Notes: generated by a model from the letters alone, not told the origin. Shown: positions 13,183 to 58,556, counted from the stretch's first letter. The stretch: 64,000 nt of DNA from a virus (IMGVR_UViG_3300045016_000151:18078-82077); one strand, 5' to 3'. Translations and numbers: made by a program.

Positions 13183-13565
13183 ATTACTGGTTATTAGATT
13201 GGGCAAATATTACACGTGGTACACCGGATATACTAAGTCAAGGACACTCTGAACATGATGCTAAAACTTTGACATCTACGCAACTGTTAACAACAGAACC
13301 AGATTTTAATTTTTTAGCGCGTTTTGTAATAAGTCCCAATGAGATAGAACAATTTCCAACAGAATTTCATATTGACGATGTCTTAAATAATAGACTTTCT
13401 ATCGATCTAATTAAAGGAGCCAAACATTTTTTTCTACTTGGTGATCGATATGAAATTGTCGGAAAATTGTCAAATAGTATCAATAGTTATTTTAAGATTC
13501 AAAATATAATGGGGTTCCACGTTGTCTTAATTAAGACATTTAGGTTAGGGGCTCCACTAGATTAA
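13158..13565 (+). CDS. Hypothetical protein; start uncertain (the track start at 13092 is an alternative)
   Basis: ORF track; overlaps the upstream gene. Confidence 0.35.
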   Translation: MATCTDKINYWLLDWANITRGTPDILSQGHSEHDAKTLTSTQLLTTEPDFNFLARFVISPNEIEQFPTEFHIDDVLNNRLSIDLIKGAKHFFLLGDRYEIVGKLSNSINSYFKIQNIMGFHVVLIKTFRLGAPLD

Positions 13566-13596
13566 AATAGGGTACGTTGTACCCTATTTTTTTTTA
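13566..13596. terminator. Bidirectional rho-independent terminator (AATAGGGTAC-GTT-GTACCCTATT followed by T8) between convergent genes
   Basis: Perfect 10-bp stem plus a T-run. Confidence 0.75.
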
Positions 13597-13601
13597 TTAT
13601 C

Positions 13602-16600
13602 TTAATAAAATTGCTTCTTTTCAGGATCTAGTTCTTGTCCGAAAGAGGTACCTTGTAAATAAGCCGGCATTGGATCCGTGCCTTTTAAATTAGTTTCGTA
13701 ACCCATCGCAGCCCCCTCCTGAATGGTTTGTTTTAATCTGTTGGTTGTTAAGCGACTTAACCAATCTTCTGACTCCAATGGCAAGACATCAATACTTTTG
13801 AAGAATGGTGTATATGCTATTAATGGTTTTCCATTTAAAGCCAATTCACGGTTTATTTTTTTCACCGCTGTAACAGGTACTGTATCACCACGTAGCCAGG
13901 TTACTGGAGTATCGGTCGGTATATCAGTTATTTCTGCAAAATTACTAGTTCCTCTTATTACCGTCTCGATTGATTTTCGTGCAAACTTTTTATCATATAT
14001 ATTGTTTATTTCATCGGCCGTGTATAATTGCGCTGTCAAATGATCCTTTAATTGCGAAAGCTCTTGCGGTTTTATACTACCCATGGTTAGTGCATCACCC
14101 TTCTTTATAGTTTGCCCAACAGAAACTTTAATTGTCAATCCGTGTGGTATATAATATCGTTTGTCTTGAATATACAAATCATGACCGCCGGCTGGATTCG
14201 GTAAAATAGATTTTACAATTCCCGCCTCTTCTGCTAACACTGCTTTATCTACGACGGTTTGAGGAACATATAATAATTCCTTCAAACGAGGGAATCCGGC
14301 CAAAATACCTCCTTTAGTACCAGCTACTCCGCCTGTATGAAATGTCTGCAATGTTAGTTGTGTGGAACGCTCGGTGATAGCTTCTGCGTCTAATATACCA
14401 ACATTTTCGCCGATACGTGGCGGGGTTCCGTTGGCCATTAGTCCATAACATTTAATGCATACACCGCCATCCGATTCACACAATAAAGGAGAACGTACCG
14501 GAAGTAACTCAATCTTTTTACGTCTTGCCTTGTTAATTAAATCTACATCAACTAATTCATTACGTACACCTACACCACCAATTGTTTTTGCCAAATATCT
14601 GTCAAATATTTCTTTACTGTCAATAGCTATTTCTATATATTCTGGTGTGCCGCAATCATCTTCTACTACTAATAAGTTTTTGGTATTGAATAACAACTCT
14701 TTATTTAGTCCACCGCTTTCCTGAGTATTGATAGATTTATCTACAACGCCTTTTCTAGCGCCATAAGATTGATTCCAATAATCGAACGTATCTACTCCTT
14801 CTGACCACGATTTTTTTATCGGAAATGGAATAGGATTACCGTGAACGTCTTCTACTACACCAGGCATTGATAATATTTGTGTTATTTGCCCAGCTTTATT
14901 AGTACTTCCACTTCGTAGCATATCATAGAATCTATTTTTATCTTTTAATTCCTTATCTTGTTCGTGCTGTATTTCTTTTTTTGCGGCCATATATAATTCT
15001 ATACGCTTTTCCGCAGGTGTTTTAGAAGTAATTTGTTTCTCGTACTTATTTAATATTCTATCTCTAAATGAGCGATCAATAGCTAAATCTGTTATTGAAA
15101 GGGTGCTTCCACGATCTATGGCATATTGTCTTCCAACGTTTTTAAAATGATCCATAATTTTTCCAAATTCGTTAGGATGATTTTTGTACAACACGTCAAT
15201 TAGATTTTTTACATATTTAGAATCAAATTCTTGTTTATAATCCTGCAATTCTTTTGGTAGGGCGCTATTAACTAGTAATTTTCCTAGCGTTATAGTTTTA
15301 CCATGCATTATAAATTGATCTTGCATATCTAATCCAGCACGTAATGCATCCTTTGCTGTTTTAAATGTTCTACGAGTATTTTTACCTGGAACTGTTAAAA
15401 AATATAATCCAAGCTGATAATCCTGACTCAGCTGATGCATATGTTCTTTATCACCTGCTTTATGTAGATTTTTACTTGGCAACATATCTTTGGCTTCATT
15501 TACTGCTGCCTCTGATACCGGAACATGTATGCTTGCAGTATCTCCATCGAAGTCCATATTTAATCCTTTTACAATTAATGGATTGACTCGGATACTCATA
15601 CCGTCAAAACGTTCCGGATAAAAAGCTTGCACATTATGTTTATGTAATGAAGGTGCACGATTCATTAATACCGGACGTTCTTTTATTACTACATTTAAAG
15701 CTTGATCCGCGATAGGAGACCATTCTCGATATTGTTTTATCGCTTCTATCGGTTTATAGCCCTGTCGAACTAATTCACGTATAACAAATGGCTTCATAAT
15801 ACTACGAAGCATTGGTTCAGGTAAACCGATCTGATCGATACCTATAGATGGTTCTACAGTTACTGTTGATCGCGCAGATAAATCTTGTCGACGGCCCCAA
15901 ACTTTATTCTGTATGAAACCTTCTTTTGGAGAATCTCCCGCCAACGTCTTTAACAATCCTTCATATTTTTCACGAGTATAGGTTATTGGATCAATTAACC
16001 CATCCAGCGCGCGCAGGCCTTGATATAAAGCAACGCGGTTGGTTTTGTTAAATTCTGTAGGGTCAACACCAGATTTTTTAATTTCCTTCAGCTGATTATT
16101 TATAAGTGAAATATTATGGTAATGCTTATTTACAGGCGATACCTGTAAATCTCCCGATGGTAATGGATAGATCGGTCTGAAAATCGGGGGCAACACTGGG
16201 ATAGCCTTCATAATGTAAGCTTCTTCTGGAGCCAACTTAAAATCTTTAAGCACTTGTAAATATCTAACTCTTTTATTTAACATATTTACTTGAGTCGGCC
16301 CCGCGGTCTGTAGGGCTTTGCGAGTTTTTAACAGCTCTTTGGGCACATCTATATTTCTTAGTAACTTATGTATTAATTTTGTTCCAGTTAAGCCGTCGAT
16401 TTGTAGCTCTTCTCTCATAACCTGATCATATTGTCGACCATTTAATCCTATTAATGATTGTATAGCTGATTCAAATATAGGATTGGGCATAGGTTCAGCT
16501 AATAGCATATGATTCCAATTTGTACCTTTTAGTCCACCACCAGTTAACTTTGGATCAAAAAGACCTCCTTCTATTTCTGCGAGATCTTTTCCACGCAACA

Positions 16601-19600
16601 TATGTCCCGCATCTTTTATTTCTCCAGAACTCCACGTCAAAACGTCTTTTGTCGTAGCCGGAAATAACTTCATTTTGTAACCATTTTTAGATACATTAAT
16701 ACCGGCAGCCTTCATATATGATAACATTTTATCGAATACAAAGTTTTTTTGCGGCCTTGGTGGAGGAAAGCCTAATTGAAGATTACGCCAGTACTCATCG
16801 TTTTTCTGAGATTTCACCGCCGCAAATTCAAATAAATTCTGTCTGGCACCGTGCGCCAGTAATGCGTATGTTTGTAGAGGATCTATTGATTGCCCACCCT
16901 CTTCTCCCTTTGCAGGTTGTTCGTTTGCATCATATGTTCCAGGGATATCACGACTCTTAAATTTATGCTCTACTATGTGTAATAGTTTGAGATAATATTT
17001 TACACCCCAGAATACAGGGGCCTTTGTCATCGGTTTGCCATCTTTGGTGTATAAAATTTCTTCGGCGGGGATCTTATTATTTTTCAGTTCCCCTATAATA
17101 TTCTTTAAGTAATCTTCGCCAGAGAAGTTTTTTACAATATATGGTTTCCCAGTTTTATAAGCTATTTTTCCTGCAGCGGTCTCAAGCATCTGACCCATAT
17201 TCATACGACCCACTACACCATGAGGGTTGAATAAAATATCTATACGTGTGCCATCTTTTGTATATGGAGCTTCGTCATCTGATATAATTTTTGTTACTAT
17301 ACCTTTGTCTCCATAACGTGCAGCTAATTTGTCACCAACGACTAAAGGTTGTTCTTCATAAATCCACACTATAATAGAATTACCTATTCTACGAACATAT
17401 TTTATAATGCCTTCATGTTCTCCATCCCATATTAAAGAACGATCACGATATGGATTAGATATTACTTTGTGCATCTGTTTTAATATTTTTTCGGTATCCG
17501 TCAATTCCACGCGAGAAAGATATGCTATCAGTACCTCGCCTGGGAGAACGCGTTCACCCTCTTTTATTACACCAGTTTCATCAAGTTTTGCAAGGTTTAT
17601 GTTGTTAATTTTTTCTGGAAAATACGAAACAAATTTTTGTTTATCTAATATACCGGTCGCGCTTGTTTGCAGACTTTTCTTTAATATTACTGTTGATGTT
17701 AATTTATTGGCTAATGATTCGGTCACAACTATACCGTCTTCAAAATTATATCCATACCATGGCATATAAGCCACAGTAGCATTGATGCCATAAGCATAAT
17801 TACCAGATGCATCTGTAAAATTATTTTTTGCCAGTACATCAAAAGGTTTTATACGATCTCCTGGCTTTACTAGCGGGGTCGATTGTAAGAAACTATCTTG
17901 GTTAAGCGGAAAATCATTATATAAACCAATTTTATGTTTTTCACCTGCATCTGTTTTTATAGTAATGTAATCTTTATCTACAGCAGTAACTACGCCTTTG
18001 CCCACATCATCCCTGATTCTTGTAGTGGCGATCATACCAAGTATTTCGTCCATTGTACGCCCGCTCGGAGCCTGTACTTTTACTAATGGGCTTTCTGCAT
18101 TTTTTAATGGTACCGCCTGACTTGCCATTTTTGCCGCAACTGCAGCGCGGTTTCCTGAATTTGTGCCCAGAAATGGTATTAAATTTGTTGTCCAGCCAAA
18201 CATAGATGTTGGATCAAGCAAGTAAGCATCTACTTCCGATTTTGGCACTTCATCGACTTGCCCGCGATACATTATTTTTATTTGATCGTGCTGAGCTCTC
18301 CCTTTTTCATGTTGATCCGGATATCCAATTTTCATGTCATAAAACTCGATTGGAGTAACTTCTTTCTGTGTGCCATTTGGCATTATGATAGTAGTAGTTA
18401 AATCTTTACCGCGTTTTCTTACTCCTAATCCTAGACTTAAAGTAACGCCGACTTTATGACCTTCGGGAGTATGCAATGGATCTAAATATCCTAGATGCGT
18501 TGGATGTACATCACGTGTTTTAAAAGTTATTGAATGTTCGGATTGTATGGCACCAGTACCGGTTACGGTTGTCTTTCTCCATTCCGAGGCCATCTCCACT
18601 GGATTAGTTTGAGGAGAAGGATTACTCAAGTCACCTGTTGTGAAAAATTTTCGTATTGGTTCCGTATAAGTATCAGTAGAAATAATTTCTCGTATGTTCT
18701 TTTTATTATCTGTGCGATAACGCAAATTTTTGACTACATCCTTTGTTGTTTTAGAAAAGTATTCTTCTAATTGTTCGTCTACCGTGTATAATTGTTTAAA
18801 CAACAATGAATCACGCTCATCTTCAGGAGTCTCACCTTTCATAACTTTTAATAATTTAGTTGCGCTGGCCAGTAGGGCGGTCGGTGATACTCGATCATAC
18901 GAATCACCTAATGTTATTTTTGTTACCTCCGGATCCATTCTAGTATCGTCAAAATATGTACGTATATTTTCTAACGCTTCGTTATATCCTAATCGTTGCC
19001 GTCTTAATTTCTCATATAATAACGGTATTTCTTTTTCTGCTTCATTTATTCCCGCCGCCTTGTTTTTGTCAAACAGCTCTTGCCCCCACGCCTTTATCAT
19101 TTCTTGCTGCGTAGTACCTAAGGCATTTAATAATGTATAAAGATGAAAACGTTGTTTTGCTACATAAAGATAAAATACACCTTCAGCCGGATCCAATTCC
19201 ATTTTAAAATTATAACCGACAGCAAGATTAAAGAACGATTCCATTTCACCATTTTCTTTTTGTCGTGTATAAACTCCGGGCTTTAGACGAAATTGATTTA
19301 TAGTAGTATATTCGTTACCACCTATGATCATTGAAAATCTGTCGGTAAGTTTTGGAATATTTGCTATCTTCATATCTTTTATTTCATCTATAATCATGTT
19401 TGTTTGATTATCTCGCAAACGGAACGAAGCATAAACAGGTATTTGCCAGGTTTTTCCAAGTAACTTAGTCTCTTTTTGGGCTGGTAAATCCCGGTCGTCC
19501 AGCACATCTTTTATCTTTGGCGATCCGATTAGTTCCAAGGTATGATGTGTGCCGATAACAGGAAATTGTCTTTTTATAGATTGTTGTAAAGCATTTTGAA

Positions 19601-43745: not shown

Positions 43746-46700
43746 TTATCCTTTTAATTGTAATTCCAATTCTAAAACTCGTTTTTCTAATCTAATAATT
43801 TTATCTTTTTGTGTTTCTATTTGTATATAATGTTTTTGTAATTCATTCAAAAGCAATACAGGCAATTTTTCATATGCAACATAGTCAGGTCTACCATTGT
43901 TGTCATATCCAACTAATTGTGGAATAACGCTATTGACTTCTTCAGCGAGTAATCCAAATTGTCTTTCAACAATATGAAATTCTGGTTTAAAATTAAAACT
44001 GATAGGACGCAATTTGTAAATAAGGGTCGAGTCTAGTTCTAAATCAGTTATCCGCTCTTTATATCGCAAAGAAGATGATGTAGTTCCCAACAAACCATTA
44101 CTGTCAACATAAACTGCGCGAGTACTTACTGTTCTTGAATAAACGTCGGGGACAGTAAATTGACCGTCTGACCCTAATTTCATCTTTGTTTGTGACCCAG
44201 AACCTAAATTATCATAATCAAAATACAAAGTGGTTAAATTACCATCCAAATTAATACACCAATAGTGTGGTCCATTACTATTCACAAGTTTAAACCCCGC
44301 ATAATACGATATACTCGAAGTATTAACACTAATAAGTGTATTCGCTGAGTCAGTTGTTGCGGATATATTTCCAGAAGCAGTCATTGCACCGGCAGTTAGG
44401 GAGTTGGCAATAGTAACATTTGCTGATGGATCAATAGTCATAGCCAGACCATTATATGTGTAAATCTTTAGGCCATTATAAGTGGCTGTATATTTTTCAA
44501 AGTAAACATCAGAAGCACCTACATAGATATTCCCATCTACAAGTAAGTTGTTGTCTGCAACATCACTTGCACCTCCAACGTGTAAACCTTTAGAGATGGA
44601 CACGGAGTTGGCGTTACCTGTGAATACGTTGGTATTTGGAAGTGTGAATGTGCTACTACTCGTTATTGCTCCATAAATATCTACTCCACCATCTATTCTT
44701 ACATTACCTCCACCTGTGTTATCACTGAATCGTAATCCTGTACCACTTGTGTAAATGTCCCATTGATGCGAAGAAGAACCACCGCTATAGATATTGAGTG
44801 TAGAACCGCCCGAACGAGAAATAATTAAACTACTGTTTCCGTTATAAGTAATGTTGAGTGTGCCAGCAAGGGTAGCTGCACCGGCAGTTAGGGAGTTGGC
44901 AATAGTAACATTTGCTGATGGATCAATAGTCATAGCCAGACCATTATATGTGTAAATCTTTAGGCCATTATAAGTGGCTGTATATTTTTCAAAGTAAACA
45001 TCAGAAGCACCTACATAGATATTCCCATCTACAAGTAAGTTGTTATCAGCTACATCTGATGTACCTCCTACATGTAATCCTTTACTAATGGATAATGAAT
45101 TTGTGTTTCCAGTAAGTACATTAGTATTGGGTAAAGTTATAGTTCCTGTAAAGTTCGCAGAACTTGAAATAGTCTGTCCGTTAATAGTGCTTGCTACTGC
45201 TAAAGTGCCAGTAAAACTGGCAGAACTTGAAATAGTTTGTCCATTTACTGTTCCACATTGAAATGCTGCTGCCGTCTTTAATACCGCTGCACTATCTCTA
45301 TATAGCCAAACGTCGATAGGATCACCAGTACCTTCACCAAATCCTATTCCCTTTTTATTAAAAGAAGGGCCAGCATAAATTCCTATGTAGTATAGACAAT
45401 AGTTAGCATTTTGACTTGTTCCAGAATAAGATATTATATCACCACCACCATAAAGTACCATTAGACATGTATTACTACCATTTAATAAAAAAGTAACATT
45501 CTCTGCTGTTACTGAAACGTCTCCTCCTTGTCCAGTGGAAGATGCATACAAACCTCCAACATTAAGAGTTCCACCAGAAATTGTTCCACCAGAAATTGTT
45601 CCACCAGTAATTGTTGCAGTTGAAGTAAAACTGCCTACTAACCGCATCACATTATTAGAAGTATCATAACCTATATAAACAGAACCATCACCTTTACCAA
45701 CATAAAAATAGGTATTATTAGCTCCTATAGTTCCCCACGGCATTGTTACATTTCCGGTGGTTTTAGCTGCGGCAAAAACTGGATACGCCTCAGACTCCCA
45801 AGATGCACAGAAACCATATCCATTTTTCCAATCAGGTGTAGAACCCCAATAGTTTCTGCCCACAAAAGCCCACATCCATTGTGAATTTATATACTTGCCT
45901 ACATACATAGAAGGATTGGTTGAATTGGCTAGTAGATTCAAGTATACATTATTTGAGTCATTGTATGTTAGAGCATCAGAACCAATAACCCAACTCGCTA
46001 TTCGTGCCGTGAGTACTCCTGTAGATAAATTTTTAGAGAATTGAACATAGGGAGTGCTGGTATAATCTGGAGATAATGAGAATCCAAATTCATTCTGCCA
46101 ATCACTGCTATAATACAGAAGCCCTACATTAACACCTATCTTAGAACTTGTATTCCTCATAAACAACGATGAAGCTACTGAGTTAGCAATAGAATATAAT
46201 GTAGAGTAATTATCACCTGATGTTTTATATAAAGCAGAATCTGTAAAATTCCAACCGGCAATCTGATACTGACGAGTTGTCATTTCAAATACTGGGGCTG
46301 TATTATAGTCGGCAGCTAAAGTAAATCCAAATTCATCACGCATACTTGATTCACGATAAACATTTCCAATACAAATAAACGGACCTGATGAACCGCCACG
46401 CATAATAATTGAAGGCTTAGTATAAGCGCCGCTGAATTGGGTCGCATCCGAGAGAATATAAACATAATCTTGACCGTGATCATGCCACAAAGCTTTATTA
46501 TTAAATCGCCAGCCCGCAATATGCGCTCTAAATGAAGAACTATTATCATTCTTATCACACGATATCTCAAATAAGTTGCCAAGATTCCATTGAACAAATT
46601 GAATCCCATAACGTACATTATTTCCTGTTGCCGTCCATTTAGATACCCCACTCCAAGTGCCTCCGGGATCAACATCTGCTACCCGTCCAACAAATAATTT

Positions 46701-49700
46701 AAAAGTATCAGAACCGCCATTATGATTACCTATTGTCAAACCCGCCGTATAATCTCTCGCTGCATAATCTTCAAATCTACCTGCTTTTGAAGCTAAACGA
46801 ACTCCAGTTCCTTGCCAGTATTTTTCATCTACTGCATCAGATAAGGAATCTTTAGCAAAAACCGTAGGGTCGAAAGACCAACCGGCAATATGACTTGTAT
46901 TAGTGGCATCAGCAGTTAAGAAAAACAATTCATTTCCAGAAGCATCATAAGCATTTATACCAAATTTGGTAGACCAACCCCATGCTGTTGTTAATATTCG
47001 ACCAACCGTTATTCGAGCAACACTTGTTGTTGAATAAGCAGCACCGTTAACAATAGTTAAAGCAGCGCCACCAGCATCTTGATAAAGTGCCACAGATTGT
47101 GTTCGACTATCACCAGCATTTTTATAAAAAGCGTATTGATTTATTCCCCAATTGGCAATATGAGCTGTTCCACCGGAATCAACACGCATTATAGATGTTC
47201 CAGATGAATTTAATAGCTCAAAACCAACAACATCACTACCAGAATCAAAAGCTTTAAGAGAACCAAGACGTAAATTCCATCTTGATCCATCATGAAATCC
47301 TAAATAGGTTATAGTTCCAATAACGCCCATCTCCATCAGAACGCCAGAAGAACCTCTTAGCCAAAAAATTGGTCTTGATCCATTATCCCAAAATCCGAAT
47401 CCGGCAGAGTTATTAGCTTCTCCTATACCGGCACTAAGATAATTACCTATTTGAAGAATAGACCCTAATGTCATTCTATTTGCATCAAAACTAAATCCAG
47501 AAATTGTTGCTGTCCCACTTGTAGGTAAATAGAAATTTTTTGTTGTTCCAGAACCAGTATATCCAGATATGCCGGATGAATTAATAACAACGGCTTGATA
47601 ACCATCAACGGTATAACGTCCAATGTATGTTCCTGCTGCTGCAATAGCTGTTGATGTTCCAGCATCAAGAACTCTCATCCCAGCAGAAGATAGAGATATT
47701 GTTGGATTTTGAATACTTCCACCAAATCCTCCTGCTATTGCCCACATACCGTAACCTGACCCAGTATTACTTCCATCTGTTTTTTGATAAACAGTAGTTA
47801 TACTACCGCTTTCAACTTGCAATCCCCAGAAGGCAAGTTTCTTAGTTGCTCCACCACTATGACGCAATACCCAGTCCATCCCCGACTGATAACCAGTAAA
47901 ACTTGTTCTTACAACACTTAATCGTGTCCAAGTATCAGCGTAGATAGTTCCAAACACTCCCCAAATATCGCTATTAACTGTACCGTTTGTATCAGTCCAA
48001 ACCCAAACCGATGTAGTGTATGTTCCACTGGATAACGCTCCGGTCAAATTCAGATAATACCATAAATCAGTTGCATCATCAGATTTATGATATAATACTG
48101 TACTTCCATCTGGCGCAGTTACATTACCAGTAATATCTGTACCGACACCACCACCAGATCGCCCATAAAAACAATCATCGGATACACCTGTAAGTAAGTT
48201 AGTATGTATCTTACCAACGTAGAAAGTATTACCTATGGTAGAACCTCCACCTACAGCAAGTGTTCCAACAATATTTGCATTACCTTCCGCATACAAATCT
48301 CTTGTATAAACTCCAAACGTGCTTGATGCTAATGCTCCATATGTTAGTGTATTGACTCCACTTAAATCGCCAATTTGAGAACGAGTTATTAAATCGGTCT
48401 GTGGAGCAGTCGTCCATGTCGCTATGCGATCATACGGACGATTACCTACTTCATTCAGCGCACATCTTTCTAAAATACCGTTCCCCGATACTCCATAGTC
48501 TAAAGCAATAGTTCCTTTTGTATAAGTAGTAGATGTACCAGACTGTTTTGTATATGTGTAACGCTGATATTTATTTGTGGTATCTCTATCATAATATGTT
48601 ACAGTCAACCACGCTTCAGTAATATCCAAATGAAACGCGCCCATCGAAATATTCTTAATGCGAACATAATCTCCGTCAGCAAAAACCTGACCTGTATAGC
48701 CAGTGATTTCTTCTACATACAAATAAGTATCAGTACCACATACAAAATCTTGATATAATTTAGCAGCAGATTTACAAATAATTTGTCCACCAACTAATGC
48801 TTGTTCAATATCAGTAATAAATGATTTTGCATGCATCTCATTGACAGTTAGTTTTCCAAACACAGAGCCAACTTGTGTTAAATAATATCCAGTATATGGA
48901 TCACTTACAGAATAGGTAGTTGAATAGATAGCTTTTGCGTTTGCCATTATTACATTGCCAGCAAATGTAGCAGAGTCGTCACTTTCTAAAATACGTAGTG
49001 CTTCAACACCGGCAACTGTAACAGCAAATCTTGCCCCTCCACTTGTTTCTCTTGATATATACGTATTTGTCCCAACACCAAGCATGTATCCTTTACCCGT
49101 AGCAATAGTCACATTTCCATTGGACAAAGTAAGATTACTTGGAACTACCACATTCCCAGAATTGTCAATCGTGATTGAATTAGCTAAAGCATAATTATCG
49201 CCGCCCAGATACAAATAGCTGTCTGTACGCTTTAAGACTCCTATAAATGCTGCTGATGTATTTGATTGAGGTGCTATGACACATATATTATTTGGTATAA
49301 CAATTTCATTACCTTGAAATTGACCGCTTGTGTAAGAAGTTAAATTAACTCCAATAGCAACGGCTCTTGTTGCTTCACAAGTGCCTAATTGCAATACTCG
49401 ATAAGCACCACTATAACCAAAATAAGAATCTGTTATGTATAATGGTGTTGACCCTATACCAACACCGAGCGTACTCTTATTTAATCTAAGTGCATAGCCA
49501 ACGCCATACGAATAAAACCCCAAATCATTTGTTGTCTCAATTAAATTAACATCCCAAACCACTGAATCAGATCGTTTTATCCTAAATGGTGTCTGACTTC
49601 CAGCAGCAGTAATATTTACAATTAGTCCATAATAATCATAATTGGTTGTTATATAACCATTCGTTAAAGTAATGTTATTTGCAAATGTAACAGCGTTAGT

Positions 49701-52700
49701 AGTCTTATCAAAAATTACTGTATTTGTACCACTTTCGTTGTAAATATACAAATTACTATTACTAAGCTCTCTTTGACCAACAAACCATTCTCCGGCTCCA
49801 TTAGTTCGATAAGATAGTCCGAGATAGTTTGTGTTTGCAGGACGATTTAAAACAAAATATTTATTGGTAATTGGCTGTAAATATATGTTCTCCTTGAACA
49901 TCCAAGAACTATTGCTAATGTGAGCTGAATAGCCATAACTTGTATGCTCAACATAATATTCACCAACGGGAGTAGTTTTGGAATTATTAATAGTTGGATT
50001 TACTGTAAAACAATTTAATAACCTCCAATTTATATTTACTCCGTAAGTTACTGGATTTAGTTTAACGTAAACAGACTTTGCTCCTCCATTTACTCCCTCC
50101 AAACGCACAGCCAACAGTCGAGGATTGTAAGAATGATGCTCAATTTCCAACATAGGAGAATACGAATCAGGAGTATAATATGTTGTCATTACTTTTATTT
50201 CAAAAGGCTGCTCATTGTCTGTAGAACTAATATATCCTTTAACAGTAGCATAACCATATTCACCTCCAAATGTGAATAATTTTAGCCAGACAGGATCGCT
50301 ACCCGCTTCCCAACTTTCTGTGTAAGTCGTTGAATTGTACATTCCGTTGCTTATTACAGCATTAGCAAATGTAGCTACATGATCAGCTCCAAGCGTTAAT
50401 GTTAAAGCATCATCAGAGCCGTAAAATGCCGACCAGCCATCATCGCGCACAAGAAATCGTGTACTTCCACTTGAGTTGGATGCTTCAAAACTGTATGTAC
50501 TCGAACTTGTTCCAGTACCACGAACAGATAATCTACCATTACCTATTACTGGAATGCCTACAAATCCATTTTTATCTATTAACAATCTTACTAAATCAGG
50601 CGCACTTAATCCTTGTGATGATTCTGTCCTGATTGCGAAATCACCATAAGCGTATTGATCGTTACCTAACCACCAACGTCTTGAGTCAGATGCTCCAGAT
50701 TTATAATCCCAAGCCACATATTTACCATCTGTAGCGCTTGGTAATGTTATAGATGTAAATGGAGTTGCTGTTTCAACACCGATATAACCATTGCGCTGGG
50801 TTATTCCAGCGTGCCAAGAGCTACCATACCAATCATATAGCGTCCATGCAGAATTACTTAGAGGATTAAGGGCGAATGCTGGGGTAGAAGAATTATAAGC
50901 TACCCCCAATCCTGTAGATTGCGAACCTGCTACAATTGTAAATCGTGAAGTATAATATCCATTTATGGTTGGATCATTCCCTCCAACAACCACAGATCCA
51001 ATTGAAGAAGCCAAAACTACAGCACCCTGAGAAGAAGGATTGCCTGTAGTCGTCGTACCATCAGCAAAACTCGGTGTTATAAAATTACCTAAATGAACAG
51101 CAGTACTTGTAAAATCATATGAAACTGTTAATTTAGACCCAGAATCAAATAAACCATTATTCTGGTAAACCTTAACCTTCATCACTAAGGTTGATGAAGA
51201 AGCGGTATCAACATCTAAAGTGATCGAATTAGATACCCCTTCTTCATAATCCGACGCAATATACGCCGTCATATTATATTCACCACCTGCATACCAATCT
51301 CTTACTCTTACAGTATATCTGCGAACCAAAAAAACAGGATTGGCATTACCTGTCTCCATTCCAGAAAAAACTAAAGTAACTGTTCCAAATAAAACCCCAG
51401 ACTTGTATCCTGTATCTGGATTAGTAAACTGGAGAACTTTGCGAATTTGGGAATCCTCTGTATAGCTAAAAACTTGAGAACCAGAAAAACGCTTACTTAA
51501 TGAAGGCGTACCAGAAACAAACTCAATACTACCGATATTGCTCAAATCAATAACAGTTTCAGAACCAGAAGTATTTCTTGTAGCCCATGTAACCCAATCT
51601 GATTCGGCTTTATTTAGAACTCTTATATTACTTTGATGGAGTAAGACCCCCGAAGTTCTTAGATCTCCTATCGTTATCCAACTACCAAAAAGATACCCAC
51701 CATAACCGCTGCCTTGATTACAACGGACACTCCAACCACTCTGATCGTTTAACAAACCAATTCCAGAAGAATCCCAATATAAATATCCTTTAATAGTGCT
51801 ATCGTGATTCGTCCTCATTCTAATACCGCCAGAAGTAGGACTTCCTCCAGAAGAAATGTTCCAAAAGTTTAGACCGTCACAATACCAATGCGTAGTTTGA
51901 ACTTCATTATATAATCCTGTTTTATTAGTCGTAACGTAAAACCAGTCGTCGGTAGAAACTATACTTGTAAAATAGGCCCGCATACTTTCATGAACATAAA
52001 ATGGTCGCTGCCAACTACCTCCAACAGCACGACGGTAAAGATTCATTTTATCACCACTTACGTGCCACATCCAACCAACGTTAGACTGATCTGTTTCACA
52101 GAATGCTAATGTAGGCGCGTCACCTACAAGTTTAATTCCTCCACCCCAACCTTCAGGATTTGAACTGGTATCAAACCAATTTTGATATATCTGCAATTTG
52201 CTATTATAGTCAGTGGCAAGATTACCACCAAGAATAATAGAACCTCCAGAAGTGGCATTTAATATTAATGGCAAAGTTGAATAAGAGGCGAGTTCGGCGT
52301 ACTTAAATGTCTTACCAGCATTGGTAATATAAATATTAAAATTCATATCGACGCCATTTGTTATATCAACTAATCTGTTAGCACTTGACCCCTCAGTCGT
52401 ATCAAATATACTCAAACTCGAATATCCGGCATTTGCAAAAACACCTTGCTTGCTAATTGATACTTCACCATAATGGTTAATCTGCATGTGAGCTATAGCA
52501 CCAACAGCCCAATTATTCGATGTGGCAAAATACATCTTGCTACCATAAGTACCACTTGATTGCACATATATACCGGCATGTGTTTTGTCAGCGTAACTGG
52601 GATTCGGAATACCCCAAGTTATACCTTGTGAATAATCATAATAGCTGACATCATTAGTAGGCTCAAAATGCAATCCACATTGCGAAGTCAATCCGGGAGT

Positions 52701-55700
52701 GGGATAACTAATATTAATTGGAACTTTATCAATTGTAATATTACCGCTACTCGTTATAGCACCAGAATTAATTGTTGATGCAAATGTAGCATTGCGTGAC
52801 GTATCAAAACTTAATGCTGCTGCCCCCTCATAATACAGACGAAAAGTATCACCTGTTATTTCGATATAAGCCGACCTGGCAGTTGAACCAGTTTTATTGA
52901 AGTAAACGTACGGATTAGATGCATTTTGTGTAATTAATACAGATCCCTGTATTGTGCCCAAATTAGAAAAATTACCTGTTGTAATATCCCAATAACTTAA
53001 CCAATAGCTATTTGAATGATTATAAAAGCCAATTAGACTTGATGTAGATGTCCCTGAATTTATTATATCTACTTGCTTTCCATCTGTGTTTGATGCAGTA
53101 AAACGCAGATAACGATTATCAACAGAGTTGTCTTTAACAATTTCAATTCCTGGACTTGTTGAAGTAGTAACAGTGAGTTTCCCACTACTCATTATAGCAC
53201 CTACTGTAAAGCTACCAGTACCTATACTAAAGTTTGCTCCTAAAGTAGGAGCCGTTTGTGAGCCCTTAGCAACATGTGCTCTGGTTCCTAACGCCCATTT
53301 GGTATTAGTAGTATCCCAGTATATTAATCTATTTGTTCCGCCGGTTCCACTATCGATTTCGAATCCAGCATAATTAGGAATTGCTGCGTCATTATTAACT
53401 ACTTGAAATGGATTAGCAATGATAACTGTACCATAATTAGTCCAGGTTCCATATGAAATAAATGAATTATAAACGGTCAGTGAGTCTATTTCGGCGGTAA
53501 ATCCTTTTAATTCCGCCACACCAGACCCAAATTTTAAATACTGACTTTCACTATTTACTACATATAATCCTTTAGCGTTTAATTCAGAAAATGGTGTAGT
53601 CGATTTAATTTCGATATCATCTATATACAAACCTACTTGATTATTACCAGATATCGTTATTGTTATATCGCTATCAGTTTGCGGTGTAAAAGTCGCTACA
53701 AATTCAGACCAGTCATAAAGACCGCCCTGACCAGAATCATAATTTAAAAGTTCATGTTCAGTATCATCATAATTTGCATATACTCCTACAGTGCCTTCCA
53801 TAGGCCAATACCAAAGTGTAATTGAAGTAGAATGTCCTGGAACGGCTGCACCAAGATTTTTTGAGGTCCAACACATCCAATCACGTTCAGACGCACCTGT
53901 TCCCAAAAAACTATAAGTGCCGGTATGTGCTTTAGATGTAGATCGAGCAAATCCAGTACTTGTACTCCAACCATTTGCACTAGATTCAAAATCAGTAGTA
54001 TCTAATCCACTGGAAGTAATTGAGCGCCATGATGTATTTCCAGTCATATATGTGATTGGTATACTATTAATATCGTTTATATACAAACCATAACTATCAA
54101 TAAGTACTTTAGCTGTAGCATAACTTGTACCGCCAAATCCTCCTACTGTTCCCCATAGTCCGTATGTGTTAGTTGTTAAATATCCTAAACGTGCTTTCTC
54201 TGAAGAACTGTATTCGGCCATTACATAAGGATGACTATCAGCTACACTCATAATAACACCGGTACCAGAACTAATATTTTCAATTGTATTAGCATTGATT
54301 GTCCAGCCACCGACAGTTATAACTCCAGCAGATGTCCATGCGATATTACTACTTGCCAAATATCCAGAACCATTTGTTGCTAATGAAATACGAGTATAAT
54401 CATTTCCACCAGAACGATAAAGCAGTCGAACACCGTTTGTTGAATCTACAGTAACAAATGAGTATGAATTGGCGTATTTACCGGCAGCGAAGCCATAAAC
54501 GTTTGACGAATAACCGTATATGCCATTTAAATTACCAATTGCCCAATGTTCAGTCCAAGCATTATAAGTTACATCATTATCACGGACATTTCCAACGATC
54601 GTAGGTCCATATTGTGCCGCACTTTTAACACTACGCAACGAATATAAATCGATAAAACCATCTCCTGTGACCCCAGTATTAAATATTGCGTCGCCGGCGT
54701 ACCATGCATGAGCTGCATGTTCTTCGATGTTTCTATCCACTACGTATGTGTAAGGTCCTACTCCTGATGGACCGGATTCAATTTTCATAAATTCAATTAC
54801 TGCATTTGCTTCTAAATATACAATATCACCAACAACCAAATTATTATGTTTTGTATATATTGTAGTGGCAGATTCGCTTGCAGCCAAATCCGACGTTAGT
54901 ACTGTGGTAGGTCCTACCAATACGCGGCCGCCAATTGTTGCTAATGTATCTTGTGCTACTAATGTCTCAACTATAAGTTCAGCGGCATGTAAGGTAAGAT
55001 ATTTTTTACTTAATGAACCAAGATTTAAATCGTAATTACTTGCGGGTAAAATATCATTTCCGGTAGGATCAAGTATTATATCTCCGCCAGGAGCGATGTT
55101 TAAATTTACCCCTGTGTCTGTATAAAGATTACCACCCTTAACATATAAATTACCAGTTAATGAGGCACCAGCGCTAAATTCTACTAATCCAGAACTACCG
55201 GTTAATGTATTCGAGTTGGGCAATGTTAATGTGCTGCTTAGTGTTAAGGCGTCTGAAATCGTTTGTCCACCACGTCCGGCAAGATACAAATATTGTGTAT
55301 GATCATCACCTGTTGTTAAATTCGATAATGCGTGGTGATCTGTAGCTATATAATTCGATGTCGGCAACGGAGTAACTGCGCGGTAATCTGCCGCTTCGAT
55401 ATACGTTGGAGGGCTTCCAGTATTACGATAAATTATTCGATACAATAATTTCATCTCTGCTACCGGTAATGTATCGTATATTAGATTTTCGGGAACATTG
55501 TTTGCGCGTGCATTTGCTATATTAGCATCGACTCTTTGTCCCATCAACACCATAATAGGATAAGATGTATTATTCGACGCAAATACCCAGTAGGCCACAT
55601 AATTATTCGCCGGCACAGCTGTTAGTGTTGTGCTATTATTATATTGAATATTACTACTTACTTCATAATAAGGAACGGCCGATCCTGCTATTGACTTGTA

Positions 55701-58556
55701 GGCTGAGGATCCATCGTGATATAATACCATACATGAAGTTTGTTGCGTAATTTCATGTTCAATATCTTCATCATATATTTCTCCCGCAGCAATCGTAATA
55801 CTGCTATTACCAAATGTACCTGCTAAACCAGATGCATAACGAGTTCCTACAGTTTCATGTAAGTATTCATGCGTCCATTGATCGCGCCCCATCCAGTGAC
55901 GTTCGTCTGAAAGTATTCCTACACCAGTAGTTGAATTCCAATAAACACCGGCTACTAAGCATTGATCGAAACCAGGATATGAACTGCTTGCAGTTAATGT
56001 GGGTACATTATCAACTAAACTATAATATATCCAGTAAAAATTAGTTGAATCTGTAATTGTTACATATGATGTATTTAATGTATATTCAGAACCGTTCAGA
56101 TAAACTTTAAAATTTGTACCTGTAATAGTCATACGACGGTTTGTATTATTAAATGACAATGCTGTATCAGCACGATTTGGAAATCCTGTATAGTGCTTAG
56201 TCGTTGTAAACAATGTAGGTAGTTTTACTGATGTGCCTAATGTTAACGCAACAAAAGTCGGTGAACTAGATGATAATACCGGATTCGCGCCTTCGACTAC
56301 TGATACATTATTTATTTTGTAAGTTTTGCCTGATGCGAGATTCCAGTGTTCAGTTGATGTCCAATTAGTGTTTGACAGATCCCATAAGATAGTCTTATCA
56401 GTAGTGCCCTTCAAAATAATACCACCACCGTCTGCCAATGCATCGGTTGGATTTGTACTAACAGCCATTGAAATTTGCTTGTCGGCTACTTTAAGAACTG
56501 AAATATCTACTTCATCAATATCCCCAGTTAAATATATATTTCCGGCAATGTATATATCTCTTCCAATATGTACATCACGTGGTCGTCCGGTGTTTATACT
56601 TCCAATATCATATGTCGCGTCAGTCTCATAATTGAAACTTGCCCCACCGTGCAATATTACTCCGTTTTTAGTTATTCCGGTCTGCCCACCTGCACCAGTT
56701 CCAGTTCGTTTTGCAACTATCCACGCTGAATCTCCAGATGAATATGTTAGTAATTGATTATCACCGCTAGTGTTATCTACTTCAATTCCACCATAACTTG
56801 GTAATGCGGCATTATAATTCAAGACCTGTATCGGAGCTGAAATAACTACTGAACCATATTGATGCCAAGTACCATACTGATTAAAATTACCATAGATGGT
56901 TAAGTCTTCTACTTCAAAACCACTTCCTTTTATCTCTGCTATTCCCTTGCCGAATTTGATATATGAATTTGCATTGTTTACAAGGAAGAGTCCTGCTGCG
57001 CTTAACTCCGAAAACGACGACGAATATTCCAGACGTACTGTTGAGAGATAATATTCATACACAACTGTGCCTGATATAGTAACAGTAATTATACCATTAG
57101 TGGTAGTGGTGAAAGTTTTTTGCCACGTACTATTTGTATATGGAGGAACGGTTACAGTATAATCGGTATAACTTCCGCTATGTGCAATGCGAATAGTAAT
57201 ATCTGAAGGAGCATTAGCGCAATTATGTTCTATTCTTAAAGTATAAGTTTTATTTGCAACTCCGGCCCCTAAACTTTTATAAGTTGATTTTCCAGACCCC
57301 GCTGTTGCTTTAATATAGTTAGTTATCCAAGAGAAGCCATTTGTCACATCCCAACCTTCTGCGCTGGAAGCAAAGGTAGCGTTTTCTACAACTGTCGTAT
57401 CAATAGAACGCCAATCAGTATCACCAGTAATATATGTTATGGGGGCGCTATAGTCATCATTAATATATAGTCCAGAGCTATTAATAAATACTTTTGCGTT
57501 ATCATACGATGTGCCGCCAAATCCACCAACAGTTGCCCAAATACCATTTACATCACTAGATAGATAACCCATTCTAGCATATTCGGTGACACCGTTACCA
57601 ACACCTATGTATGGAGTATTTGTACCAACCACCTCTATCTTGCTTCCTGAAACTTCGCGTACTAGGCTGGTTTCGGTAATTGCCCATCCGCCGATCTTTG
57701 CATAGATATCTGTCAATGTTCCAACAGTTTGACCATCATTATATAACGCTACCACTGTCTGACCGAGTTCATCAATTCCTCGGATACTTGCAGTATCGAT
57801 TATGAAACCAGAAGCACCACCATCAGAGATGCTAATCCCTTTTTCGACCCGAATACGTCCGGCATCGATTTCGTCGGCCGCTAAACGACTTGTAATTTTT
57901 ATTTTGAGATTAGAATTACCAACATGTGCACCAATGATCTTTACTTTATAAGCAGCACTTATCAATGATGTTGTAAGATCATATATAATAGTTTCACCAA
58001 CAGCAAGATTACATGGATCGGCCGGTGTGGCATTCCAGTCAGTTAAGTTGTATGCGGTGTCAAAATCCGGCGTTGTAATAATTGGATTTTTATGTTGTTG
58101 TATTAATGTTATTTCAAGCCCAGATACAGTTGCAGTACCCACATTTGATATGGATACTCGTGTGGCATTTATAGCAACAGCATACTCTACTAATACAGTT
58201 GAATCATCAATAATAGTAATAGTTTCACGTAACAATCCTTGTATATCGGCTGGTTGTATAGGATCAAGCATATCATCCCCCATTATGTCGATCCATTCCC
58301 AATCGCCATTTGGTGTCATCGCTTGAATCATTCCGCTACCAATAAATTTTATATGATACCGTCCGGATGGAATTTCACTTTCGTCTTTCGTTATACTCCA
58401 GTAACCATCTTCATCTGTTGTGGTATAACCAATGATTTCTTGTGTATCTGCTCGTAGTAATTGAATATAGACACCAATTACTGGATTTCCGTTGGTATGG
58501 AATTTTTTGCCTTCAATTGTTATTCGATGATTTTCTATTTTGTAAGATGTTGCCAT
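43746..58556 (-). CDS. Giant tail-fibre or adhesin protein (4936 aa) with multiple divergent internal repeats and a C-terminal S74-type intramolecular chaperone/autoproteolysis domain (...IYKLRPISFNFKPEF...GLLAEEVNSVIPQLVGYDNNGRPDYVAYEKL...)
   Basis: Uninterrupted 14.8-kb ORF. The C-terminal chaperone-domain motif is read from the translation. Internal repeats occur at both the protein and the DNA level. Confidence 0.85.
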   Translation of the reverse strand: MATSYKIENHRITIEGKKFHTNGNPVIGVYIQLLRADTQEIIGYTTTDEDGYWSITKDESEIPSGRYHIKFIGSGMIQAMTPNGDWEWIDIMGDDMLDPIQPADIQGLLRETITIIDDSTVLVEYAVAINATRVSISNVGTATVSGLEITLIQQHKNPIITTPDFDTAYNLTDWNATPADPCNLAVGETIIYDLTTSLISAAYKVKIIGAHVGNSNLKIKITSRLAADEIDAGRIRVEKGISISDGGASGFIIDTASIRGIDELGQTVVALYNDGQTVGTLTDIYAKIGGWAITETSLVREVSGSKIEVVGTNTPYIGVGNGVTEYARMGYLSSDVNGIWATVGGFGGTSYDNAKVFINSSGLYINDDYSAPITYITGDTDWRSIDTTVVENATFASSAEGWDVTNGFSWITNYIKATAGSGKSTYKSLGAGVANKTYTLRIEHNCANAPSDITIRIAHSGSYTDYTVTVPPYTNSTWQKTFTTTTNGIITVTISGTVVYEYYLSTVRLEYSSSFSELSAAGLFLVNNANSYIKFGKGIAEIKGSGFEVEDLTIYGNFNQYGTWHQYGSVVISAPIQVLNYNAALPSYGGIEVDNTSGDNQLLTYSSGDSAWIVAKRTGTGAGGQTGITKNGVILHGGASFNYETDATYDIGSINTGRPRDVHIGRDIYIAGNIYLTGDIDEVDISVLKVADKQISMAVSTNPTDALADGGGIILKGTTDKTILWDLSNTNWTSTEHWNLASGKTYKINNVSVVEGANPVLSSSSPTFVALTLGTSVKLPTLFTTTKHYTGFPNRADTALSFNNTNRRMTITGTNFKVYLNGSEYTLNTSYVTITDSTNFYWIYYSLVDNVPTLTASSSYPGFDQCLVAGVYWNSTTGVGILSDERHWMGRDQWTHEYLHETVGTRYASGLAGTFGNSSITIAAGEIYDEDIEHEITQQTSCMVLYHDGSSAYKSIAGSAVPYYEVSSNIQYNNSTTLTAVPANNYVAYWVFASNNTSYPIMVLMGQRVDANIANARANNVPENLIYDTLPVAEMKLLYRIIYRNTGSPPTYIEAADYRAVTPLPTSNYIATDHHALSNLTTGDDHTQYLYLAGRGGQTISDALTLSSTLTLPNSNTLTGSSGLVEFSAGASLTGNLYVKGGNLYTDTGVNLNIAPGGDIILDPTGNDILPASNYDLNLGSLSKKYLTLHAAELIVETLVAQDTLATIGGRVLVGPTTVLTSDLAASESATTIYTKHNNLVVGDIVYLEANAVIEFMKIESGPSGVGPYTYVVDRNIEEHAAHAWYAGDAIFNTGVTGDGFIDLYSLRSVKSAAQYGPTIVGNVRDNDVTYNAWTEHWAIGNLNGIYGYSSNVYGFAAGKYANSYSFVTVDSTNGVRLLYRSGGNDYTRISLATNGSGYLASSNIAWTSAGVITVGGWTINANTIENISSGTGVIMSVADSHPYVMAEYSSSEKARLGYLTTNTYGLWGTVGGFGGTSYATAKVLIDSYGLYINDINSIPITYMTGNTSWRSITSSGLDTTDFESSANGWSTSTGFARSTSKAHTGTYSFLGTGASERDWMCWTSKNLGAAVPGHSTSITLWYWPMEGTVGVYANYDDTEHELLNYDSGQGGLYDWSEFVATFTPQTDSDITITISGNNQVGLYIDDIEIKSTTPFSELNAKGLYVVNSESQYLKFGSGVAELKGFTAEIDSLTVYNSFISYGTWTNYGTVIIANPFQVVNNDAAIPNYAGFEIDSGTGGTNRLIYWDTTNTKWALGTRAHVAKGSQTAPTLGANFSIGTGSFTVGAIMSSGKLTVTTSTSPGIEIVKDNSVDNRYLRFTASNTDGKQVDIINSGTSTSSLIGFYNHSNSYWLSYWDITTGNFSNLGTIQGSVLITQNASNPYVYFNKTGSTARSAYIEITGDTFRLYYEGAAALSFDTSRNATFASTINSGAITSSGNITIDKVPINISYPTPGLTSQCGLHFEPTNDVSYYDYSQGITWGIPNPSYADKTHAGIYVQSSGTYGSKMYFATSNNWAVGAIAHMQINHYGEVSISKQGVFANAGYSSLSIFDTTEGSSANRLVDITNGVDMNFNIYITNAGKTFKYAELASYSTLPLILNATSGGSIILGGNLATDYNSKLQIYQNWFDTSSNPEGWGGGIKLVGDAPTLAFCETDQSNVGWMWHVSGDKMNLYRRAVGGSWQRPFYVHESMRAYFTSIVSTDDWFYVTTNKTGLYNEVQTTHWYCDGLNFWNISSGGSPTSGGIRMRTNHDSTIKGYLYWDSSGIGLLNDQSGWSVRCNQGSGYGGYLFGSWITIGDLRTSGVLLHQSNIRVLNKAESDWVTWATRNTSGSETVIDLSNIGSIEFVSGTPSLSKRFSGSQVFSYTEDSQIRKVLQFTNPDTGYKSGVLFGTVTLVFSGMETGNANPVFLVRRYTVRVRDWYAGGEYNMTAYIASDYEEGVSNSITLDVDTASSSTLVMKVKVYQNNGLFDSGSKLTVSYDFTSTAVHLGNFITPSFADGTTTTGNPSSQGAVVLASSIGSVVVGGNDPTINGYYTSRFTIVAGSQSTGLGVAYNSSTPAFALNPLSNSAWTLYDWYGSSWHAGITQRNGYIGVETATPFTSITLPSATDGKYVAWDYKSGASDSRRWWLGNDQYAYGDFAIRTESSQGLSAPDLVRLLIDKNGFVGIPVIGNGRLSVRGTGTSSSTYSFEASNSSGSTRFLVRDDGWSAFYGSDDALTLTLGADHVATFANAVISNGMYNSTTYTESWEAGSDPVWLKLFTFGGEYGYATVKGYISSTDNEQPFEIKVMTTYYTPDSYSPMLEIEHHSYNPRLLAVRLEGVNGGAKSVYVKLNPVTYGVNINWRLLNCFTVNPTINNSKTTPVGEYYVEHTSYGYSAHISNSSWMFKENIYLQPITNKYFVLNRPANTNYLGLSYRTNGAGEWFVGQRELSNSNLYIYNESGTNTVIFDKTTNAVTFANNITLTNGYITTNYDYYGLIVNITAAGSQTPFRIKRSDSVVWDVNLIETTNDLGFYSYGVGYALRLNKSTLGVGIGSTPLYITDSYFGYSGAYRVLQLGTCEATRAVAIGVNLTSYTSGQFQGNEIVIPNNICVIAPQSNTSAAFIGVLKRTDSYLYLGGDNYALANSITIDNSGNVVVPSNLTLSNGNVTIATGKGYMLGVGTNTYISRETSGGARFAVTVAGVEALRILESDDSATFAGNVIMANAKAIYSTTYSVSDPYTGYYLTQVGSVFGKLTVNEMHAKSFITDIEQALVGGQIICKSAAKLYQDFVCGTDTYLYVEEITGYTGQVFADGDYVRIKNISMGAFHLDITEAWLTVTYYDRDTTNKYQRYTYTKQSGTSTTYTKGTIALDYGVSGNGILERCALNEVGNRPYDRIATWTTAPQTDLITRSQIGDLSGVNTLTYGALASSTFGVYTRDLYAEGNANIVGTLAVGGGSTIGNTFYVGKIHTNLLTGVSDDCFYGRSGGGVGTDITGNVTAPDGSTVLYHKSDDATDLWYYLNLTGALSSGTYTTSVWVWTDTNGTVNSDIWGVFGTIYADTWTRLSVVRTSFTGYQSGMDWVLRHSGGATKKLAFWGLQVESGSITTVYQKTDGSNTGSGYGMWAIAGGFGGSIQNPTISLSSAGMRVLDAGTSTAIAAAGTYIGRYTVDGYQAVVINSSGISGYTGSGTTKNFYLPTSGTATISGFSFDANRMTLGSILQIGNYLSAGIGEANNSAGFGFWDNGSRPIFWLRGSSGVLMEMGVIGTITYLGFHDGSRWNLRLGSLKAFDSGSDVVGFELLNSSGTSIMRVDSGGTAHIANWGINQYAFYKNAGDSRTQSVALYQDAGGAALTIVNGAAYSTTSVARITVGRILTTAWGWSTKFGINAYDASGNELFFLTADATNTSHIAGWSFDPTVFAKDSLSDAVDEKYWQGTGVRLASKAGRFEDYAARDYTAGLTIGNHNGGSDTFKLFVGRVADVDPGGTWSGVSKWTATGNNVRYGIQFVQWNLGNLFEISCDKNDNSSSFRAHIAGWRFNNKALWHDHGQDYVYILSDATQFSGAYTKPSIIMRGGSSGPFICIGNVYRESSMRDEFGFTLAADYNTAPVFEMTTRQYQIAGWNFTDSALYKTSGDNYSTLYSIANSVASSLFMRNTSSKIGVNVGLLYYSSDWQNEFGFSLSPDYTSTPYVQFSKNLSTGVLTARIASWVIGSDALTYNDSNNVYLNLLANSTNPSMYVGKYINSQWMWAFVGRNYWGSTPDWKNGYGFCASWESEAYPVFAAAKTTGNVTMPWGTIGANNTYFYVGKGDGSVYIGYDTSNNVMRLVGSFTSTATITGGTISGGTISGGTLNVGGLYASSTGQGGDVSVTAENVTFLLNGSNTCLMVLYGGGDIISYSGTSQNANYCLYYIGIYAGPSFNKKGIGFGEGTGDPIDVWLYRDSAAVLKTAAAFQCGTVNGQTISSSASFTGTLAVASTINGQTISSSANFTGTITLPNTNVLTGNTNSLSISKGLHVGGTSDVADNNLLVDGNIYVGASDVYFEKYTATYNGLKIYTYNGLAMTIDPSANVTIANSLTAGAATLAGTLNITYNGNSSLIISRSGGSTLNIYSGGSSSHQWDIYTSGTGLRFSDNTGGGNVRIDGGVDIYGAITSSSTFTLPNTNVFTGNANSVSISKGLHVGGASDVADNNLLVDGNIYVGASDVYFEKYTATYNGLKIYTYNGLAMTIDPSANVTIANSLTAGAMTASGNISATTDSANTLISVNTSSISYYAGFKLVNSNGPHYWCINLDGNLTTLYFDYDNLGSGSQTKMKLGSDGQFTVPDVYSRTVSTRAVYVDSNGLLGTTSSSLRYKERITDLELDSTLIYKLRPISFNFKPEFHIVERQFGLLAEEVNSVIPQLVGYDNNGRPDYVAYEKLPVLLLNELQKHYIQIETQKDKIIRLEKRVLELELQLKG
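44389..45045 (-). repeat. Perfect tandem DNA duplication inside the fibre gene. The unit is about 490 bp; a stretch of at least ~160 bp is identical at 44389-44550 and 44879-45040
   Basis: Identical strings read directly from the sequence (gcaccggcagttagggagttggcaatagtaacatttgctgatggatcaatagtcatagccagacc...). Confidence 0.8.

Follow-up and report, generated by a model that had tools for sequence, protein, structure and literature searches.

A single gene in a 64,000-nucleotide stretch of viral DNA (IMGVR_UViG_3300045016_000151:18078-82077, all of which is referred to here as the window) encodes a protein of 4,936 residues. We think it probable that this protein is a giant receptor-binding fibre of the S74 type, that it arose by the addition of modules onto a cassette of ~620 residues, and that a perfect 168-bp repeat in the gene is a patch of conversion or recombination between two old copies of a 164-residue distal unit (unit C, copies C1 and C2). 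The positions of these and other features are collected in Table 1.

As an earlier note on this DNA had claimed, the gene is a single open reading frame (ORF). The 14.8-kb ORF is on the minus strand and uninterrupted, and its ATG is preceded at 5 nt by a ribosome-binding site (AAGAGG) and lies 9 nt after the end of the upstream gene's ORF. It occupies the site of the baseplate-distal fibre in related phages, with a holin and an Amidase_2 lysin downstream, followed by the portal. The same note called the product a fibre protein, and the synteny with relatives, one of which has Baseplate_J upstream, bears this out. Its ranking among the largest single phage ORFs was overstated, because single predicted proteins of up to 7,694 aa, tentatively structural, have been published from huge phages (Al-Shayeb et al. 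2020, PMC7162821), and some domains of the window fibre recur in fibres of 3,330 and 3,677 aa. An exact-sequence lookup of the fibre protein returned no match, nor did PHROGs or a sequence search of the PDB; in the phage collection, no cultured phage matched at the DNA level, and tblastn matches with the fibre were limited to the S74 domain and short segments.

Relatives of the fibre were recovered only by an exhaustive HMMER search; a word-index search with the alignment of module A (a repeated module described below) was empty, and IMG/VR scans with the fibre N-terminus, the upstream protein, and the anchor alignment found no relatives. The first ~620 residues have orthologues in five proteins (P0009, P0010, P0012, P0013, and P0014; 36-50% identity in that search), all of which contain the first copy of module A, and three of which (P0009, P0012, and P0014) are complete at 730-763 aa. 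Across the orthologues as a whole, including those in the syntenic loci below, identity over aa 1-620 is 36-58%. In the related loci L003 and L004, three upstream genes have orthologues, and the fibre at the same position encodes 985 or 1,075 aa and shares only aa 1-620 with the window fibre; L004 additionally has the amidase and portal downstream. The upstream-gene orthologues in L003, L004, and L006 are 41-57% identical, and all three loci have the fibre gene at the same position. The fibre relatives in L006 and L008 are cut by contig ends at lengths of at least 1,069 aa. The L008 fibre runs on into the aa 653-732 segment, like the window fibre, and in L006 the anchor is joined to a segment resembling aa 1191-1434; these differing junctions indicate that modules have been shuffled in this lineage. 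In L005, which is more distantly related, a 3,330-aa fibre (P0028) lies three genes downstream of Baseplate_J; P0028 and the window fibre are collinear over four blocks (aa 12-77, 665-754, 784-1130, and 3388-3691). We conclude that the baseplate-distal fibre locus is variable and that the window gene is at the long end of its range. In L003, a related 130-kb contig, a set of methyltransferase and glycosyltransferase genes (12958-20833) comes after the short fibre; the window has no such block in that place.

The only Pfam domain above its cutoff in the fibre protein is Peptidase_S74 (PF13884), at aa 4828-4882 (E 1.5e-5; 25.6 bits, cutoff 22, rising to 29.9 bits when the C-terminal piece is searched by itself), in agreement with the earlier note, which had placed an S74 chaperone domain at the C-terminus. 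The tblastn matches of this domain were S74-type tail proteins only, and the S74 end has weak sequence matches to the S16 fibre tip (6f45), MyRF (7dc3), and T5 pb1 (8hqz). The candidate catalytic dyad consists of Ser4828 (44073-44075) and Lys4833 (44058-44060), which align with the conserved Ser and Lys of five other S74 proteins and are spaced i/i+5. Dyads with this spacing are found in endoNF (S911/K916) and MyRF (S587/K592), where cleavage occurs only in the trimer (PMC8326128).

We looked for internal repeats by BLAST of the ORF in chunks, by a shuffle-calibrated diagonal scan, and with iterated hidden Markov models (HMMs); the three methods agree, and they recovered the older diverged repeats that the earlier note had described (a BLAST of the whole ORF against itself gave the self match only, and chunking was required). 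The largest repeat is module A, ~355-370 aa in length, of which there are two paralogous copies. The note had reported modules recurring three times; this holds for the short GGFGG motif, whereas the large module occurs twice. Each of the motifs SSA(E/N)GW, GYL(S/T), and VGGFGGTSY has one occurrence per copy of module A, within aa 330-402 and within aa 1458-1530. The third site, GMWAIAGGFGGS (aa 3603-3614), has only a 32-residue motif in common with module A, and a third full copy was rejected: the hhalign probability is 22%, the independent E value (i-E) of the HMM match is 0.15, and the site's score in the diagonal scan did not exceed the shuffle null.

The centre of module A is probably a jelly roll like those of carbohydrate-binding module (CBM) families 4 and 9, for which the support is indirect. 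Residues 402-526 of the orthologue P0013 match Pfam CBM_4_9 (E 1.6e-7, 32.2 bits against a cutoff of 25.9), and a seven-sequence profile of module A matches 1gui_A, the CBM4-2 of Thermotoga maritima laminarinase (E 5.8e-5); both results favour the CBM-like module proposed in the earlier note. A profile of the aa 3388-3691 region (A5) also matches 1gui_A (E 1.2e-3) and points in addition to jelly-roll parts of baseplate proteins of phage E217, which makes this a borderline candidate for a third, separately related CBM-like region. The three putative CBM-like regions lie at about aa 385-515, 1510-1655, and 3455-3590. The note had also named pectate-lyase-like modules as something to look for; Pfam searches with the whole protein and with pieces, and a PDB sequence search, found no enzyme domain, pectate lyase included.

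A k-mer scan of the entire window for exact repeats found two of at least 20 nt. The shorter, of 25 nt, is an overlap within a 15-bp microsatellite; the longer, and the sole exact repeat of at least 26 nt, is the 168-bp tract, whose two copies lie at homologous positions of the adjacent units C1 and C2 (164 residues each). The earlier note had rightly described a perfect repeat but placed its copies 490 bp apart; the offset is 492 bp (164 codons), the length is 168 bp, and both copies share the reading frame. Within the tract, all 56 codons are identical between C1 and C2. In the 33 codons directly upstream, 28 residues are identical, 19 of these 28 codons differ synonymously, and identity at third positions is 33%, which is synonymous saturation. 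Downstream of the tract, nucleotide identity drops to ~41%, and the remainders of the two units align with gaps at ~25-30% residue identity. The 492-bp unit contains 168 bp of perfect identity, a further 87 bp at ~71%, and ~237 bp at background level; given the mismatch rate of the flank (32/99), the chance of a run of 168 matches is P ~3e-29. A conserved 40-residue neck motif in the upstream flank has 73% DNA identity between C1 and C2, and 72% between either of them and the fibre of an unrelated phage (P0004, locus L001).

The earlier note interpreted the repeat as a perfect tandem duplication within the fibre gene that happened very recently and marks active repeat expansion and contraction. 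Two adjacent in-frame units with 168 identical bases in common would suit that interpretation, and direct repeats of this length are able to recombine. A fresh tandem duplication is contradicted, because the entire 492-bp unit would then be identical, synonymous sites included, whereas 324 of the 492 bp have diverged, the downstream parts can be aligned only with gaps, and the upstream flank is both synonymously saturated and as diverged between C1 and C2 as it is from another phage's fibre. We consider a recent duplication very improbable. As the state of the flank implies that the duplication is old or that the units were acquired separately, only the 168-bp patch is young, and the best and most economical reading of the tract is non-reciprocal homologous recombination (gene conversion) between C1 and C2. 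By its mechanism, the repeat could still be expanding and contracting.

The main rival to a conversion patch is an artefact of assembly or polishing, in which tracts that are in reality only similar were made identical by bubble merging or by mis-mapped polishing reads, or in which the assembler passed through the loop of repeat and spacer too often or too rarely and the copy number is wrong. An exact 168-bp repeat would form a loop in a de Bruijn graph, and the copy number would not be readable from the graph alone. The same phage is present in ENA ERZ27250200 (contig L002, with 99.885% identity across 7.8 kb) and JGI Ga0233420 (contig L007), and both contigs break inside the fibre gene, L002 at window position 56203 (aa 785) and L007 at aa 117, which indicates that the gene is hard to assemble. 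No identical C-terminal fragment was present in the protein collection, and the exact tract was not found in a scan of metagenome contigs. Such an artefact nevertheless requires near-identical tracts beforehand, so that a true patch of much higher similarity than the flanks would remain; moreover, very long intact ORFs in the window (4,936 and 2,026 aa) argue for a good consensus, and both copies of the tract are in frame at homologous positions. We regard an artefact as unlikely, although it is the alternative that we take most seriously.

The L002 break coincides with the start of a very common ~310-aa domain, and both breaks fall in the 5' part of the fibre gene, which suggests that the assemblies broke at sequence common to several genomes or at strain variation. 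All nine differences between L002 (k141_534757) and the window have G/C in the window where the contig has A/T; the last 362 nt of the contig contain five of them. Two are nonsense differences: codon 665 GGA>TGA (contig position 11993, window 56564) and codon 742 TCA>TAA (contig 12225, window 56332). Errors from low coverage, or damaged DNA, may account for them; if they were true, the fibre would be truncated to 664 aa, near the length of the orthologues.

We also considered whether the tract is kept by selection as a recombination switch, by which the population would reversibly add or drop the 164-residue distal unit in a phase variation of fibre length or host range. The offset is a multiple of three, so that the deletion and duplication products would both be in frame, and the tract is located at the distal, receptor-proximal end of the fibre, just before the S74 domain. 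A switch of this kind would make the length or receptor reach of the fibre vary heritably and reversibly, in a fibre that would also carry three lectin-like modules per polypeptide for multivalent host recognition. Against it, no copy-number variant was found in the protein collection, in a scan of IMG/VR with a unit C peptide pattern (which returned no relatives of the unit), or in the metagenome contigs; the genes next to the fibre gene revealed no dedicated recombinase or invertase; and a single conversion event accounts for the data without selection. This alternative seems to us distinctly improbable.

Finally, a repeat pair in a phage fibre could be the template and variable repeats (TR and VR) of a diversity-generating retroelement (DGR), and the window does encode a 338-aa protein with an RVT_1 domain (26947-27963, plus strand; E 2e-20). 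This protein looks like a retron-type reverse transcriptase carried by the phage, with retron St85 as its best NCBIfam match (216 bits, cutoff 235), followed by Ec67 (197 bits). When template candidates in 25600-28700 were compared with the whole window, no pair with adenine-specific mismatches was found, and the two tracts are 100% identical, both coding, and located in one gene 17 kb from the reverse transcriptase. On the strength of the retron-type enzyme and the lack of an adenine-biased TR/VR pair in the window, the DGR was rejected, and we give it practically no weight.

We therefore return to a giant S74 fibre with a conversion patch as the best explanation. In this scheme, many fibre modules would have been added onto a conserved cassette of ~620 residues (the anchor and the CBM-containing module), which makes up most of the fibre in related phages. 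Three chains are expected to fold together, as in other members of the S74 family, after which the S74 domain would cleave itself at Ser4828 to leave a mature fibre of ~4,827 residues, along which as many as three CBM4/9-like lectin modules may lie. The 168-bp patch would have been copied recently between the two old, synonymously saturated copies of the distal unit, and it could now serve as an in-frame substrate for the loss or gain of a 492-bp unit.

Several observations weigh against this explanation. The window protein itself has no match to Pfam CBM_4_9 (PF02018) at E <=1, either as the whole protein or in 500-aa pieces, and an AlphaFold2 (AF2) model of module A from two sequences had a predicted local distance difference test (pLDDT) score of 37.7. 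Trimerization, cleavage, and glycan binding are predicted from family membership. Detectable homology stops at one end of the tract, and a simple conversion tract would not usually have such a boundary. A single assembly is the source of both the perfect identity and the copy number; the two other contigs of the same phage stop before the repeat and give no independent confirmation.

Should the scheme hold, the locus shows a receptor-binding protein that has grown about five-fold through modules on a conserved anchor and that can be compared directly with short syntenic orthologues, and the tract is a clean, testable case of intragenic sequence homogenization in a host-range gene. The in-frame repeat that results from the patch could yield length variants.

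Table 1. Features of the fibre gene in the window, in order from the N-terminus of the protein
Feature	Window position	Strand	Residues	Remarks
Whole fibre ORF	43746-58556	-	4,936 aa + stop	ATG at 58556
N-terminal anchor	57696-58556	-	1-287	44-61% identity in orthologues
Module A, copy 1	56634-57695	-	288-641	IGGW start, GGFGG motif, putative CBM4/9-like jelly roll at ~aa 385-515
Segment common to cyanophage structural proteins (S-CAM7, S-CBS2) and P0028	56259-56600	-	653-766	
~310-residue fibre domain	55287-56219	-	780-1090	
Partial copy of unit C neck motif	55056-55271	-	1096-1167	TLPNSNTLTG...
Module A, copy 2	53208-54314	-	1415-1783	37-40% identical to copy 1
Diverged third copy of unit C	52539-52961	-	1866-2006	
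Central region	48396-52538	-	2007-3387	Almost no detectable relatives
Module homologous to P0028	47484-48395	-	3388-3691	Borderline CBM4-like jelly roll, then third GGFGG motif
Region with four IAGW-type repeats	45771-47180	-		
Coding microsatellite, 15 bp x 3.2 (GGTIS x3)	45568-45615	-	~4314-4330	Tandem Repeats Finder (TRF), 96% matches
Unit C, copy 1 (C1)	44652-45143	-	4472-4635	
Perfect 168-bp tract in C1	44877-45044	-	4505-4560	
Unit C, copy 2 (C2)	44160-44651	-	4636-4799	
Perfect 168-bp tract in C2	44385-44552	-	4669-4724	
S74 intramolecular chaperone/autocleavage domain	43749-44075	-	4828-4936	Heptad-like C-terminal tail

Elsewhere along the chain, residues 13-84 have weak matches to CarboxypepD_reg/SdrD_B-like beta-sandwiches that are below the Pfam cutoffs, as do the orthologues. 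The ~310-residue domain is the source of nearly all of the 4,698 matches to aa 1-1200 among 1.84 billion representative proteins; it belongs to no Pfam family and has no close solved structure, and a Foldseek search of it against the PDB gave no match. Fibre residues 779-1086 also match the 735-kb phage LR756501. Several His, Asp, and Glu residues of the domain are invariant (H128, H137, H141, and D170-E171-D172 in the numbering of alignment A4), which hints at a metal or catalytic site. The domain is very common in fibres and merits curation. A search with the central 1,600 aa gave one weak match, and the sole match within the central region is an S74-ended fibre (P0158), at aa 2205-2293.

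The smaller repeats comprise the IAGW repeat of ~86 aa (aa 3793-3879, 4005-4091, 4091-4172, and 4178-4262) and a 21-residue tandem at aa 4438-4479. The microsatellite is the sole tandem repeat reported by TRF, and it is a second, smaller candidate for variation in fibre length, in this case by slippage.

Other genes in the window are also of note. One ORF of 2,026 aa (13602-19682, minus strand) matches both the beta and the beta' subunits of multisubunit RNA polymerase; this fused polymerase is 28% identical to those of Vibrio phage D69 and Salmonella phage Arash (180-187-kb phages), in which the matching region spans several annotated features. A phage-encoded bpMoxR/AAA_5 ATPase (20977-22122, plus strand; E 3.5e-46) is of a type known from MoxR-vWA-beta-propeller ternary systems. 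Two paralogous DUF559/endonuclease-like genes (23406-24350 and 24667-25644, plus strand) have repeated upstream sequences (families D2, D3, D5, and D8) and are probably duplicated homing-endonuclease cassettes. An 826-aa protein (30770-33250, plus strand) has the shoulder domain of the Major Vault Protein (E 9e-27) together with Vault_3 repeats; such a protein is unusual in a phage, and this one may be an SPFH-like relative.

Fibres and spikes matured by S74 domains, and phage structural proteins of several thousand residues, are already known, and none of our findings alters the current understanding of phage fibres. The endosialidase tailspikes (K1F endoNF), T5 pb1, and the eukaryotic MyRF likewise have a C-terminal S74 domain with an i/i+5 Ser-Lys dyad and a heptad-like helix. 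The passenger of the window fibre is ~4,800 residues long, compared with roughly 900-1,400 in endoNF-type S74 systems, and, unlike endoNF, the window fibre has no detected sialidase or other enzyme domain, and its cleavage is predicted. The structural proteins of huge phages (PMC7162821) resemble the window fibre in their several thousand residues and in their origin from uncultured large phages; their maximum length is greater, and no architecture is described there for comparison. The ~310-residue domain may distantly resemble the shoulder of the lactococcal phage p2 receptor-binding protein, TssK of the type VI secretion system, and the long tail fibre of cyanophage A-1(L): the alignments cover only ~110-125 of its 310 residues, with 6-12% identity and a high root-mean-square deviation, and the domain is located in mid-chain in the window fibre but is N-terminal in the shoulder/TssK systems.

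The closest comparisons are with metagenomic relatives. The syntenic orthologues (in the loci L003, L004, L006, and L008) have the same position, anchor, and CBM-bearing module A; the complete ones are 730-1,075 aa long and end in unrelated short C-terminal domains, whereas the window gene encodes ~4,300 extra residues, including the second module A, and is about five-fold longer. Two uncharacterized metagenomic fibres approach its size. P0028, collinear in the four blocks described above, follows a Baseplate_J module, but it is without module A and has ~190 residues where the window protein has ~2,250 (aa 1130-3388). In P0123 (3,677 aa), the ~310-aa domain is present four times and the chain ends in S74. 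The unit C pair is absent from both. What is particular to the window fibre is the five-fold difference in size, the presence of up to three putative CBM-like modules per chain, and the sharply bounded patch of identical sequence.
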